Origin: Candidatus Iainarchaeum sp.
Lineage (GTDB): Archaea; Iainarchaeota; Iainarchaeia; Iainarchaeales; JAFCCJ01
Assembly: GCA_017610305.1 (NCBI GenBank)
Contig: JAFCCJ010000003.1
Coordinates: 1 to 44,471, forward strand
Direction of reading: 5' to 3'
Length of the DNA stretch: 44,471 nt
In this document: positions 17,880-40,544 of the stretch, one piece after another
Numbering within the stretch: the first letter of the stretch is position 1
How the letters are laid out: each line of letters begins with the position of its first letter
Program-made: the position numbers and the translations under genes
Notes under the pieces: model-generated
What the model was told of the DNA's origin: nothing
The model's input: the letters and a program-made list of their open reading frames with translations, nothing else
The model's database searches: none

Positions 17880-18827
17880 CTAAATATCTTCAATCCCATT
17901 TTCCGTAACCCGGTATATCGCCTCACCATCAGGAAGTGACGGTGAATCCACAAGCTTTGCAACCCTCTTGTCCTCCCTGCTCTTTCTCAGATAGAGCCTG
18001 GTTTTTGATGCATGCCCGACAATATTTCCCCCAATTGGCGCAGTAGGGTCGCCGAACAGAATGTCCGGCCTTGACATCACTTGGTTGGTTACGAGAACCG
18101 CAACATTATTCATCTCTGCAAGCTTCTGCAATGTTCTCATATGCAGGTTAAGCTTCTGCTGCCTGTCAGCCAATTTTCCCCGTCCTGGGAATTCAGACCT
18201 GAACTGGGCAGTTAAGGAGTCAACAATAACAAGCTTGATATTCTTCTCATTCACCATTTCAGCCGCCTTGTCTGCCAGCAGCATTTGATGGTCGGCATTA
18301 TAGGCACGCGCAACGAAGATATTTTTCAACACTTCCTCCGGCTTAAGCCCCTGCTTTTTTGCAACCTGCACTATCCTTTCAGGCCTGAAGGAATTTTCTG
18401 AATCAATGTAAAGGACATTCCCGCCCAACCCCCCCTTTTCAACAGGAAGCTGCGTAGTCACCGCAGTCTGAAAGCACCACTGGCTTTTTCCTGAAGCCAT
18501 CTTTCCGTAAATTTCAGTAATTGACTGGGTTTCTATTCCCCCGCCAATAAGGGTATCAACCTCTTTAGAGCCTGTTGTTATTCTTCCAACAGTTTTTCTC
18601 CTTTCCGCCAGCTTATCGGCCGACTCAAAACCCATCTCAAGCGCATCTCTTGCGGCTTTTATGGCTTTTTCTCCAGTCCCATCCCCTAAACCAGCAATCT
18701 CCTTTAATTCCATTGGAGACGCTACCGCAACATTCTCCAAAGATTTATATCCTGCAGAAAATAGTTTTTCGGCCGCGGCCGGACCCACACCAGGCAAATC
18801 CTTAACTTCAGTAATCTTCTTTCCCAT
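17880..18827 (-). CDS. radA: DNA repair and recombination protein RadA
   Basis: HhH LPGVG, GGGIETQSITE, GKMASGKSQ, IVDS, TNQV, PIGGNIVGH, DSPSLPDGEA; start ATG 18827 after AGGAGG. Confidence 0.97.
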   Translation of the reverse strand: MGKKITEVKDLPGVGPAAAEKLFSAGYKSLENVAVASPMELKEIAGLGDGTGEKAIKAARDALEMGFESADKLAERRKTVGRITTGSKEVDTLIGGGIETQSITEIYGKMASGKSQWCFQTAVTTQLPVEKGGLGGNVLYIDSENSFRPERIVQVAKKQGLKPEEVLKNIFVARAYNADHQMLLADKAAEMVNEKNIKLVIVDSLTAQFRSEFPGRGKLADRQQKLNLHMRTLQKLAEMNNVAVLVTNQVMSRPDILFGDPTAPIGGNIVGHASKTRLYLRKSREDKRVAKLVDSPSLPDGEAIYRVTENGIEDI

Positions 18828-18840
18828 ATTATCTCCTCCT

Positions 18841-18899
18841 GTGAAGGTCGGTGTTTGGGGAACACCTTTTGAGATAGGTTTCCCCCTGACTGCCTTCAC
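18841..18899 (-). promoter_or_regulatory. Structured radA 5' leader (long hairpin abutting the SD)
   Basis: GUGAAGG...CCUUCAC closing stem and GGGGAAACCU/AGGUGUUCCCC inner stem; TTTATAAA at 18922-18929 predicts a start near 18899. Confidence 0.55.
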
Positions 18900-18955
18900 T
18901 CATACTAATTAGATTCAGCCCTTTATAAATAGTTTTGGAGGTGGGTTTCCGGTGC

Positions 18956-19041
18956 GAAACCCCTATCCGGGTTTACGGGGCCATCCCTGCTTTGCATCCT
19001 GTTGGGCGCACGCAGGGATATTGCTCGGGCTTCGCCCTCGC
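18956..19041 (+). repeat. tRNA-trailer-like three-hairpin element, stand-alone copy (E4)
   Basis: AAACCC-CTATCC-GGGTTT-AC, ATCCCTGC..GCAGGGAT, TGCTCG-GGCTTCGCC-CTCGC; same architecture as the tRNA-Gly trailers. Confidence 0.7.
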
Positions 19042-19079
19042 TAAAACTTTAAATACCAGTTTGGACTTATTTGTGTCAA

Positions 19080-19403
19080 ATGAAGAAAGAATTTTTTATC
19101 CTCAAATCTTTCCTGAAGATATTTGTGATTTTAATTGCAGTGATTATCGGGGCAATCGTAATTATTACTATGCTGACAACTATCCCTGATGTCCCGGAAG
19201 ATATGAAAATACTCGCCAATGCTAAAATCGAATGTTTAAATCAATATTACGACGAGGCCTCCTGTAAAGCAGATGCTGATGGGTTTGGTAATTTTGGTGG
19301 CGACAAATGGAAGATTGCCTGTTGCTGGTATGTTGAAGAAGAAGCGTGTTTTGCCAAAAAATATTATGGGGAAACAATTCCTTCTCCTCTTGAGAACTGC
19401 TAA
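19080..19403 (+). CDS. Small membrane-anchored Cys-rich hypothetical protein
   Basis: N-terminal TM plus 6 Cys; TTTAAATA at 19048 fits a leaderless start at 19080. Confidence 0.65.
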   Translation: MKKEFFILKSFLKIFVILIAVIIGAIVIITMLTTIPDVPEDMKILANAKIECLNQYYDEASCKADADGFGNFGGDKWKIACCWYVEEEACFAKKYYGETIPSPLENC

Positions 19404-20702
19404 TTACCCAATCCTACTAACAACAACCTCATCATCACCATACATATTTTTCTTTACCCTGCCAATAATTGTAATTTCCTTCTCCTTTAATTTCGGCAGT
19501 AATTCCTCAACAATATCCTCAGGGTTTTTCCTTTCAAGTAGCTCCCTGAACTCATTGTTATCCAAACCCAGCAATTTCTCCCCATCCCCGCCAAAACCAA
19601 CAACCCCGATGCTTGCGGTGTCGTCTTCAACCTCCACCTTAACCAATGCCTTCTTTTTTGGAGTTTTAACCTCTCCACACTTATCGCAAATGAAATTCTC
19701 CCCCAACGAAGAAACAGATTTCCCGCACTTATCGCAAACAAGATAATGCAGTTTCCCGGCTCGAATTTCAGAAATCTTTCCGATGATTTTAACCATCTCA
19801 TTTCCCACAATCTGGTTAATTTTCTTCCCCTCCACCTCTTCAGCACACAATTCCGCCAGGGCAGGCATTTCCCTTTTCGGGTTTTTCAGAATCCTCGCCT
19901 TCCAGCCCAAATTCAATTCAACCCCCTGCAGCCCTTCCTTTGCATAGGCCCCCTCGATTTTTATCAAATCGCCGACATTCAATTCCCTCAACACATCCAC
20001 CATCTCATTCCAAACAGCGGCCCTGCACCTTCCCTTTTCATCGGCAAGCATAAAATTCCCGACCTTTCCTGAACCCTTTTCAGAACTGAACTCCCTGGCC
20101 TCAAAGATTGCGGCAATCCTTGCAACAACATCAACATCCCCCAAACCCACAACCAATTCATTTAGCTTTAAACTTTTTGATTCAAGTTCGGCAAGTTCCA
20201 TCTTCTGCTTCTCATCCAGCAACAATTGCCCGCCCCGCCCCAAATTCAGCTGCAGTTTATCATTGAATGATTTAGTATAACATCCCTTCAGCATAATTGT
20301 GGAGCCGCGCTCAATCTTAAGGTCATTTAATTTATCCACATCATCATTCCAGATGGTTAATCTCATTTCCCCGGAATCGTCATCTATGATAAGGCTGCAT
20401 AATTTTCCTGTTTTCCCGTCCTTCTCAAAACTCTTCGGCTGGAAAATCTGCTTTGCCCTGACAATTAGCGAGATGCCGTTCATCCCCTCTTCCAGATCAG
20501 AAATTTTCTTCCCCTTGCTGCTGCCTTCAGAAAGCCCAATCCCCATCTCTTTTGCAACCATAAATGCCGCGCCCTGCTCGCTCAGCAAACCGGAGAATTT
20601 TTCCATCTTTTCGGAGATTTTTTCTTCTGCCTCTTCCTTACTTTTGCCTGCAGAAACAATCTTTTGGATAATCTCCTCTTTTGATTCAAGTGAAGGGTTC
20701 AT
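19404..20702 (-). CDS. rpa: Replication protein A (multiple OB folds plus Zn ribbon)
   Basis: SGLLSEQGAAFMVA N-terminus, DDSGEMRLTIWN and ADEKG..AVWN OB motifs, CDKC..CDKC, DDTASI. Confidence 0.88.
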   Translation of the reverse strand: MNPSLESKEEIIQKIVSAGKSKEEAEEKISEKMEKFSGLLSEQGAAFMVAKEMGIGLSEGSSKGKKISDLEEGMNGISLIVRAKQIFQPKSFEKDGKTGKLCSLIIDDDSGEMRLTIWNDDVDKLNDLKIERGSTIMLKGCYTKSFNDKLQLNLGRGGQLLLDEKQKMELAELESKSLKLNELVVGLGDVDVVARIAAIFEAREFSSEKGSGKVGNFMLADEKGRCRAAVWNEMVDVLRELNVGDLIKIEGAYAKEGLQGVELNLGWKARILKNPKREMPALAELCAEEVEGKKINQIVGNEMVKIIGKISEIRAGKLHYLVCDKCGKSVSSLGENFICDKCGEVKTPKKKALVKVEVEDDTASIGVVGFGGDGEKLLGLDNNEFRELLERKNPEDIVEELLPKLKEKEITIIGRVKKNMYGDDEVVVSRIG

Positions 20703-36583: not shown

Positions 36584-36645
36584 GCGAGCGTAGCGAGCAT
36601 AGCCTCCCGAAAGGGGCTATTCCGTCAACCCGAATAGGGGTTGGA
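36584..36645 (-). repeat. tRNA-trailer three-hairpin element E1
   Basis: TCCAACCCCTATTCGGGTTGAC-GGA-ATAGCCCCTTTCGGGAGGCTA-TGCTCGCTACGCTCGC directly after tRNA-Gly(TCC). Confidence 0.75.
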
Positions 36646-36758
36646 TGCAGCCGCCGGGATTCGAACCCGGGTCAAGAGCTAACCTCTTCCTTTTTGCAAA
36701 CTTTTTGCCGGCAAAAAGGTTTTGGAAGGCTCTGATCCTACCACTAGACCACGGCTGC
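36646..36758 (-). tRNA. tRNA-Gly(TCC) with a 42-nt intron at 37/38 (intron 36681-36722)
   Basis: GCAGCCG/CGGCTGC acceptor stem, TAGTGGTA D arm, AGAGC-CTTCCA[intron]A-GCTCT, GGTTCGAATCC T arm; BHB-like pairing; CCA not encoded. Confidence 0.93.
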
Positions 36759-39082: not shown

Positions 39083-39148
39083 GCGAGGCTAAAAGCCGAG
39101 CAAGGCCCCCCGAAGGGGGGTGCCTTGTCAACTGAGGCTTCAGTTGAA
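39083..39148 (-). repeat. tRNA-trailer three-hairpin element E2
   Basis: TTCAACTGAAGCCTCAGTTGAC-AAGGCACCCCCCTTCGGGGGGCCT-TGCTCGGCTTTTAGCCTCGC directly after tRNA-Gly(CCC). Confidence 0.78.
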
Positions 39149-39219
39149 TGCAGCCGCCGGGATTCGAACCCGGGTCAGAAGCTTGGGAAGCTCCTATGCT
39201 ACCACTACACTACGGCTGC
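39149..39219 (-). tRNA. tRNA-Gly(CCC)
   Basis: GCAGCCGTAGTGTAGTGGTAGCATAGGAGCTTCCCAAGCTTCTGACCCGGGTTCGAATCCCGGCGGCTGCA folds as a 71-nt cloverleaf. Confidence 0.96.
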
Positions 39220-39273
39220 ATCATAAAACTTTCCCACGAAAGCAATTTAATTGTTTTATTTAGTGTTTTATCA

Positions 39274-40412: not shown

Positions 40413-40473
40413 GCGAGGCTTAAGGCCGAGCAATCCCCGAAGGGGAGTCATGTCAACTGGAATGGCAGTTGAA
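40413..40473 (-). repeat. tRNA-trailer three-hairpin element E3
   Basis: TTCAACTGCCATTCCAGTTGAC-ATGAC-TCCCCTTCGGGGA-TTGCTCGGCCTTAAGCCTCGC directly after tRNA-Gly(GCC). Confidence 0.78.
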
Positions 40474-40544
40474 TGCGACCGCCGGGGGTCGAACCCGGGT
40501 CAGAACCTTGGCAAGGTCCTATCCTACCACTAGACTACGATCGC
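40474..40544 (-). tRNA. tRNA-Gly(GCC)
   Basis: GCGATCGTAGTCTAGTGGTAGGATAGGACCTTGCCAAGGTTCTGACCCGGGTTCGACCCCCGGCGGTCGCA folds as a 71-nt cloverleaf. Confidence 0.96.

Follow-up and report, generated by a model that had tools for sequence, protein, structure and literature searches.

E4, the 87-nt element next to the radA promoter, is a genuine tRNA-free copy of a family of three-hairpin repeats, confirmed by a covariance model built from tRNA-linked relatives alone. The DNA analysed (the window, 44,471 nucleotides) is contig C86 of the assembly G000, a 1.24-Mb genome that is 89% complete; it was compared with a sister species (G001), with a complete genome of the order (G017, 99% complete) and with a sample of 151 genomes of the order. 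The reading we favour, at roughly even confidence, is that the family is a REP/MITE-like, gene-less intergenic repeat, which propagates or recombines at the DNA level and persists at sites where its transcript is cut away or does no harm. Full-text literature searches, judged from their listings, brought up no published description, and the family appears to be undescribed so far.

E4 has the same hairpin order as E1-E3, the three copies that lie directly after the tRNA-Gly genes of the window (Table 1): H1, with an AAC..GTT stem and a CTATCY loop; a variable H2; and H3, with GCTCG..CTCGC. The 21-nt H1 motif (18958-18978, plus strand) has a single further match in the window at up to three mismatches, on the minus strand at 36622-36642 directly behind tRNA-Gly(TCC), and it gave no match in 100 shuffles. 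The long form of H2 recurs in four further copies of the present genome and two of the sister species, and the CA/CA mismatches of its inner hairpin become tandem G.U pairs on the minus strand; on that strand H3 is a helix, GCGAG...CGAGC, in which a tandem G.A/A.G loop forms. The two strands of E4 fold equally well, at -41.2 kcal/mol (z -3.6) and -41.1 kcal/mol (z -3.8), with none of 200 shuffles as stable on either, and there is no asymmetry within E4 itself.

A covariance model from E1-E3 only (R1, alignment A1, structure written by hand) found E4 at 23.9 bits (E 2e-4) in a search of the window with filters off, against 13.2 bits (E 0.08) for the best match outside the family, and at 37.3 bits (E 3e-6) in a search of the whole genome. 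A second model from 34 copies (R2, alignment A6) scores E4 at 68.8 bits (E 1e-17) on the minus strand. The earlier note on this DNA had staked its reading of E4 as a fourth, tRNA-less copy on a significant score for a model of the first kind, which E4 obtains. What that note had reported of the sequence was correct throughout on re-inspection: the closing pair changes compensatorily from C-G in E1 to A-T in E4, the middle hairpin is lengthened, the GCTCG...CTCGC end is shared, TTTATAAA and the TTTAAATA TATA box of the next gene are present, and no tRNA lies upstream, ARAGORN and Rfam placing the tRNAs of the window only at the three tRNA-Gly sites (36646-36758, 39148-39220 and 40474-40544). 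Since E4 and eight other copies in the genome have no tRNA contact, such contact does not define the family.

Table 1. Positions of E4, its relatives and the associated features. Positions are those of the window unless a contig of G000 is given.
Feature	Position	Strand	Description
radA	17880-18827	-	ATG at 18827, 5' UTR of ~70 nt; Pfam Rad51 4.5e-95 and HHH_5
TATA box TTTATAAA	18922-18929	-	assigned to radA
Upstream motif of radA promoter	18945-18956	-	CGCACCGGAAAC on the minus strand; part of a short palindrome
E4	18955-19041	-	87-nt three-hairpin repeat copy; strand assigned via family-level asymmetry
H1 of E4	18957-18974		6-bp stem AAACCC/GGGTTT, loop CTATCC
H2 of E4, long form	18983-19019		8-bp outer stem and inner hairpin
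H3 of E4	19023-19041		GCTCG-stem-loop-CTCGC
Insert	19042-19399	+	358 nt, missing in G001; own TATA at 19048-19055 and conserved 5' region
ORF in insert	19080-19403	+	107 aa; no Pfam match
Gene of RPA-like ssDNA-binding protein	19404-20702	-	same strand as radA; Pfam Rep_fac-A_C 5e-14 and OB folds
E1	36584-36645	-	directly after intron-bearing tRNA-Gly(TCC) (36646-36758); ATG of next ORF 18 nt on
E2	39083-39148	-	directly after tRNA-Gly(CCC); plus-strand 196-aa ORF ends 6 nt ahead
E3	40413-40473	-	directly after tRNA-Gly(GCC); plus-strand 418-aa ORF ends 8 nt ahead
Promoter-module loci	18922-18956; C43:10918, C28:25073, C30:23300, C41:21134, C23:17037, C84:5226, C13:315, C71:63, C71:677, C10:6261, C10:7551		12 loci of G000
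Small-ORF family loci, examples	C32:1261, C75:6550, C75:8052, C55:4356, C18:1525, C38:20505		in addition to window 19042-19403

R2 detects 29 copies at E < 0.01 in the present genome, among which the ends of contigs C70 and C81 may hold one and the same locus, 25 copies in the sister species and 13 in G017. At least one copy occurs in 37 of the 151 sampled genomes, representing 28 of 66 genera, and copy number ranges from 0 to ~30 among related genomes. A genome-wide count of tRNA-linked versus free copies, proposed in the earlier note, comes to 20 versus 9 in G000 and, together with a tRNA-less copy beside radA in G001, bears out its view that the element can exist without a tRNA. Thirteen of the linked copies begin 1-3 nt after the tRNA discriminator in the sense of the tRNA, with a second, tandem copy behind one of them; four are reverse complements placed 0-1 nt before tRNA-Ser(CGA, GGA, UGA) and tRNA-Cys; one occupies the 5' edge of the intron of tRNA-Ala(CGC), and one follows a 13-nt duplicate of the tRNA-Gln 3' end that has been displaced. 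Five free copies, including E4, abut a recurrent promoter module and four lie elsewhere. R2 misses a copy without H3 behind tRNA-Leu(CAA), and with this copy counted the repeat touches 19 of the 42 tRNAs called by ARAGORN.

The H1 end faces the tRNA in every tRNA-linked copy, in other genera as in this one, and the copies of the present genome all end in CTCGC, whichever the tRNA. Among 59 hits in other genera, nine are leaders, found in other families of the order before tRNA-Ser, Cys, Arg, Trp, Val, Ile, Asp and Ala; four are trailers and one sits just ahead of the 3' exon in a tRNA-Asp that has an intron. For the other 45, ARAGORN calls no tRNA within 15 nt; many of these are tandem copies or directly precede a start codon. 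Spacing to the tRNA ends is 0-3 nt across genera. Rfam 15, including RtT and the C/D sRNAs, returned only tRNA matches at the gathering score for the window and 16 loci, and nothing for 18880-19100 at E up to 10. DPANN genomes are very small, yet here a single structured repeat occupies ~2 kb and adjoins nearly half of the predicted tRNA genes, which raises the questions of how such tRNAs are processed and what moves a gene-less element for which no transposase, reverse transcriptase or matching integrase was found.

The hairpins are supported by covariation. In the alignment 94.1% of the cells at paired positions are paired, compared with 69.4% in shuffles, and none of 500 shuffles comes up to this level. 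Both sides vary in 15 of 17 pairs and all three stems covary (H1 in alignment columns 71-76/83-93; H3 as pairs 1-22, 2-21 and 5-18 to 8-15). The relatedness of the copies inflates such figures; slid controls, which preserve it, give 28-41% paired. The AAC...GTT triplets of H1 are constant as the inner stem covaries, and are not kept in all genera (G049 is one exception). Across genera the conserved core is a GCGAG-hairpin-CGAGC unit followed by a GUGCCAU...AUGGCAC hairpin. The ends of the element, read on one strand, are GCGAG and GTTNA; they are not inverted repeats, carry no GTAG head and do not pair with each other, and AAC/GTT occurs only inside H1. By eye we saw no BHB splice motifs, K-turns, C/D or H/ACA boxes or ribozyme cores.

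The two strands differ at the level of the family. The reverse complement of the strand read in the earlier note has the lower folding energy in 36 of the 41 distinct copies (mean -30.6 versus -25.5 kcal/mol), holds 30 G.U pairs in A6 against 10 on the other strand, and converts the UC/UC loop of H3 into tandem GA/GA in 31 of 34 aligned copies. A crude ORF count gave 37 of 87 copies with a co-directional ORF (60 aa or longer) ending no more than 60 nt upstream, compared with 11 of 87 for the opposite orientation, and many copies lie 1-15 nt past a co-directional stop codon. The strand of the earlier note has many UUCG-type loops, and the 13 trailers and the intron copy of the present genome are co-transcribed with their tRNAs in this weaker-folding sense. 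The 13 copies of G017 show no obvious strand switch along the genome. This family-level asymmetry indicates that a single strand is under selection, either as RNA or as single-stranded DNA.

We propose that E4 is one copy of a set of 65-87-nt, gene-less, three-hairpin intergenic repeats that has multiplied in this Iainarchaeota-like DPANN genus. Copies would lie with H1 up against a structured boundary that was there before them, in most cases the 5' or 3' end of a tRNA or an exon-intron junction, and in five copies, E4 among them, the short palindrome of the recurrent promoter module. The radA copy would have inserted into the spacer that separates the RPA-like gene from the conserved radA promoter, oriented like these two genes, and copies would spread or recombine as DNA through an enzyme yet to be found, with the selected single-stranded fold on the strand that runs with radA. 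Where an upstream mRNA ends in this strand, or a tRNA-Ser or tRNA-Cys has it as its 5' leader, the transcript would form a hairpin cluster to be trimmed off by tRNA-processing enzymes; the effect may be nil, or RNA ends may be mildly protected or insulated. RNase Z would take off the trailer copies, and the splicing endonuclease those in introns. The TATA box of the four leader copies ends 25-30 nt before the 5' end of the element, and that of element-less tRNA genes mostly starts 31-41 nt before the called tRNA start. Because this spacing fits and the RNase P RNA is present in the genome (100 bits), the leader copies are likely to be made as RNA and then cut off.

The same strand asymmetry and GA/GA motif would also be expected of a functional structured RNA made from the strand co-directional with radA and bound by a protein through the tandem-G.A helix and H2, E4 being one such unit. 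RNase P would free the copies in tRNA-Ser and tRNA-Cys leaders, the others would be mRNA tails, and the role would be end protection, punctuation or regulation. The proper promoter spacing of the leader copies, the recurrence of the leader arrangement in other families of the order (9 of 59 hits) and the conservation of the core and its GUGCCAU...AUGGCAC hairpin across genera are all consistent with such an RNA. Against it, H2 is freely swapped between sister species, many copies are transcribed in the other sense, related genomes range from no copies to about thirty, and neither an Rfam match nor a partner protein was identified; we consider this account unlikely.

Comparison with the sister species provides signs of turnover. 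G001 has two tandem copies at a site that is 9 nt long on contig C16 of the present genome, and tRNA-Val(CAC) is followed by a copy in G001 but by none in the present genome; both empty sites hold ~6 nt resembling the distal arm of H1, and neither shows a clean target duplication. At orthologous tRNA sites the position is kept with flanks 85-100% identical, and H1, H2 or H3 differ. Tandem head-to-tail copies exist. These patterns fit insertion or deletion, in either direction, together with exchange between copies, and the repeat is probably mobile. Candidate enzymes were also sought. The Y1 transposase (PF01797) was not found in G000, G001 or G017, the three genomes richest in copies, and is present in 13 of the 37 genomes that have the element and in 30 of the 114 that lack it; it was rejected as a partner on this absence and on the lack of association across the 151 genomes. 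A reverse transcriptase (RVT_1) is present in none of five copy-rich genomes. Only two PF00589 tyrosine recombinases were found, one Xer-like by eye and the other a rare integrase, and neither was typed as IntI. This integrase, which is SSV-like and lies on contig C55, was also set aside, as it occurs in 7 of 151 genomes, is absent from G001 and G017, and does not track the element.

These observations bear on the idea that the element acts as DNA, as an integron attC-like or Xer-like recombination site in which one strand is folded and at which small gene cassettes and hairpin modules are exchanged, E4 marking one such site next to radA. The one-strand asymmetry, the constant AAC...GTT triplets around a covarying inner stem, the tandem copies and the H1-like 6 nt at both empty sites are compatible with such a site. 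Single ORF inserts adjoin element copies, and at radA the 358-nt ORF insert that is absent from G001 begins right at the end of E4, with sequence identity between the species breaking just after H1. Yet the element ends do not pair as attC R boxes do, the triplets are lost in some genera, no arrays of alternating ORFs and sites were seen, and of the only two tyrosine recombinases found one is Xer-like by eye and the other is the rare integrase that does not track the element. The main text of a report on archaeal integrons makes no mention of Iainarchaeota or tRNA (PMC9668308). We regard a recombination site of this kind as unlikely.

The 0-3 nt contact with tRNA ends is tighter than plain tolerance of insertions predicts and is not explained by the REP/MITE-like reading. 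For this reason we also consider a targeting of tRNA architecture, in which a mobile element would recognise that architecture and H1 would be joined, in mirror image, to the RNase P site, the RNase Z site and both exon borders; we give it the same low standing as the recombination site. If true, it would amount to an undescribed insertion mechanism aimed at cloverleaf-forming strands, with E4 and the four other promoter-side copies showing the same machinery on a palindrome as surrogate target. Alternatively, the contact would represent an archaeal form of 'punctuation' in which tRNA-processing enzymes cut beside a protective hairpin cluster and so set the ends of adjacent RNAs, as in MALAT1-mascRNA.

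The earlier note had suggested that TTTATAAA could transcribe the element divergently from radA. The block GTTTCCGGTGCG (18945-18956), with a TATA box ~14 nt on, occurs at 12 loci of the present genome (Table 1), seven without an element copy and five with one, and at all 12 an ATG ORF lies 18-126 nt past the TATA box, on the side away from the block or element. An ACCGG-A motif 8-22 nt upstream of a TATA box precedes radA at 14 of 27 loci from other genera, and a related GGAAA-type motif does so at three more; these promoters have no clear element copy, only one weak relic. At E4 the left arm of the promoter palindrome overlaps an arm of H1. Because the module recurs without the element and precedes radA in other genera, the TATA box at 18922 is assigned to radA, and TTTATAAA with the ACCGGAAA motif is the predicted radA promoter, the element lying upstream of it on the strand of radA. 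This corrects the annotation: the TATA box belongs to radA, and the element is an insertion upstream of a conserved promoter.

These data tell against E4 as a stand-alone sRNA gene on the plus strand, transcribed from TTTATAAA with a start at ~18952-18956. The palindromic TATA box does end 26 nt before the element, the TATA box with a 25-nt block is common to five element copies of the present genome, and RNase Z cleavage of tRNA-linked copies would yield a plus-sense RNA whose 5' end is almost the same. BRE scores are -1.75 versus -1.01 for the two directions with a matrix from 30 G000 tRNA promoters that is too weak to separate them, leaving the direction unsettled. A stand-alone sRNA gene would have its own promoter, facing the RNA and conserved with it; the module faces the other way, and the opposite strand folds better across the family. 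We consider such a gene improbable; weak divergent initiation may nevertheless occur. The earlier proposal of a mobile unit or stand-alone sRNA thus divides: signs of mobility are seen in the filled and empty sites, the module swaps and the patchy distribution over 37 of 151 genomes, and the sRNA with its own promoter is not supported.

Besides radA, the module precedes ORFs whose N-termini resemble by eye those of MCM, a RecJ/GAN-type DHH protein, an XPD-type helicase, a LAGLIDADG protein, and PIN and HicB-like proteins. The module may be the operator of a replication and repair regulon, and there is some resemblance to E2F sites.

A transcription terminator or insulator, shielding the radA promoter and the tRNA genes from read-through, would account for the many copies placed 1-15 nt after a co-directional stop codon, for those just upstream of regulated-looking promoters at five loci and for those that, like E2 and E3, face tRNA 3' ends behind convergent genes. 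Four copies in the present genome and nine elsewhere nevertheless lie between a promoter and its tRNA, where read-through is needed; no T-run follows the element, and element-less tRNA genes have plain T-rich trailers. A terminator or insulator is very improbable on this evidence.

The radA locus itself is well conserved in the sister species, where radA is 96% identical and the gene, its 5' region, the TATA box, the pre-H1 block and H1 are identical or nearly so; the tRNA-less copy is kept there with a different cassette as H2 and H3. Since 19042-19399 is missing in G001, only 19 nt separate the stop codon of the RPA-like gene from the element there. This interval includes a T-rich run, and for this reason the radA copy may not be transcribed at all. 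Among 30 radA loci R2 matched only those of G000 and G001, together with a weak G004 relic (17 bits, E 0.0024) that also adjoins the promoter motif. No tRNA or tRNA relic lies upstream of radA in G001 or at the 27 loci of other genera. Because these other loci lack both a tRNA and, the G004 relic apart, an R2 match, E4 is best described as an insertion confined to the present genus, perhaps with an old relic elsewhere, and not as a decayed tRNA locus. The earlier note had named an intact tRNA at this position in relatives as the mark of simple tRNA decay, which the comparison leaves unsupported. That E4 is the remnant of a tRNA-linked copy is scarcely credible: the pre-H1 block GGGTTTCCGGTGCG loosely recalls a T-arm and acceptor 3' strand and the C32 copy keeps a displaced 13-nt tRNA-Gln end, but the block is the conserved promoter motif, and this identity and the tRNA-less radA loci largely refute such an origin.

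Two further features of radA were noted. Its 5' UTR (18828-18903) holds an upstream frame of 24 codons that starts 20 nt past the TATA box, and since a 1-nt indel breaks it in G001 it is probably non-coding. In G002, G010, G032, G025 and G027 the RadA match is either broken up or contained in a longer frame (860-1325 aa), the pattern that intein-bearing radA genes would give in some genera of the order.

The ORF beside E4 belongs to a family of small ORFs with ~14 other loci in the present genome, several with lipoprotein-like signal peptides ending in Cys. Members have a nearly identical TATA box and 5' region (AATAAATAC-AGTTTGGACTTATTTGT) and often lie right behind tRNA genes or element copies. 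On contig C32 (1034-1565) the order is tRNA-Gln, a small-ORF insert of ~370 nt, a 13-nt copy of the tRNA-Gln 3' end, and an element copy. This order is the signature of what would be a site-specific integration into the tRNA 3' end, displacing the old end and the element; the duplicate, the sole tRNA-end duplicate found beside a copy, belongs to the neighbouring ORF insert. An SRP or other RNA gene between tRNA-Gln and the C32 copy was considered and rejected, Rfam finding nothing in this gap, which is the small-ORF insert.

Other events at tRNA ends were observed. On contig C55 (1870-4617) the first nucleotides of an integrase-type tyrosine recombinase ORF duplicate the 3' end of tRNA-Ala(CGC), the tRNA itself lying 1.7 kb away with an element copy in its intron; the region looks like an SSV-type integrated element. 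At the tRNA-Gly(CCC) locus of G001 (C22:1737-2407) the gene appears to have been replaced, since only the first 19 nt of the G000-type tRNA are left and a different tRNA-Gly(CCC) without an element behind it comes next. Many tRNAs of the present genome have long introns (27-89 nt), among them tRNA-Gly(TCC) at 36646-36758 with 42 nt. ARAGORN labels two intron-bearing tRNAs 'Pyl(cta)', which are probably miscalls.

Among known systems the closest parallel is with the REP and BIME sequences of enterobacteria. These are short, gene-less, hairpin-forming intergenic repeats present in tens of copies, often just behind stop codons, with a strand or orientation bias and in tandem or inverted clusters that are co-transcribed with their neighbours; a REP is palindromic, short and imperfect, with GTAG conserved as its 5' tetranucleotide, and RAYT (Y1) transposases are associated with the group. 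The present repeats are likewise gene-less, hairpin-forming, intergenic, present in tens of copies, strand-biased, clustered, co-transcribed with neighbours and found behind stop codons. They differ in being archaeal, in their unit of three hairpins with a tandem-G.A helix, in their tight tRNA contact, and in the absence of a GTAG head and, from the three richest genomes, of a Y1 transposase. MITEs have terminal inverted repeats and target-site duplications; the element ends are not inverted repeats, and the two filled/empty pairs show ~6 nt resembling the H1 arm at the empty site and no clean duplication.

Structured RNAs adjoin a tRNA or tRNA-like fold in dicistronic genes, such as plant tRNA-snoRNA and Nanoarchaeum tRNA-C/D sRNA, and in MALAT1-mascRNA. 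As in these systems, cleavage by RNase P or RNase Z would define the end of the present element, which differs in having no C/D or H/ACA boxes by eye and no Rfam match, and in occurring in both orientations relative to the tRNA.

The transposed tRNA introns of Thermoproteales, as outlined in PMC4090602, are near-identical short sequences present in many tRNA genes through a DNA-level mechanism (Fujishima et al. 2010). Unlike those introns, most copies of the present family adjoin the 5' or 3' end of a tRNA from without or, as with E4, are remote from tRNAs; two copies do sit in tRNA introns at the exon border. In comparison with integron attC sites, those of archaeal integrons included (PMC9668308), the element has no end-to-end pairing, and no cassette arrays or gene typed as IntI were found with it; it shares with them the primacy of structure over sequence, the favouring of one strand, the AAC/GTT triplets and the nearby small ORF cassettes.
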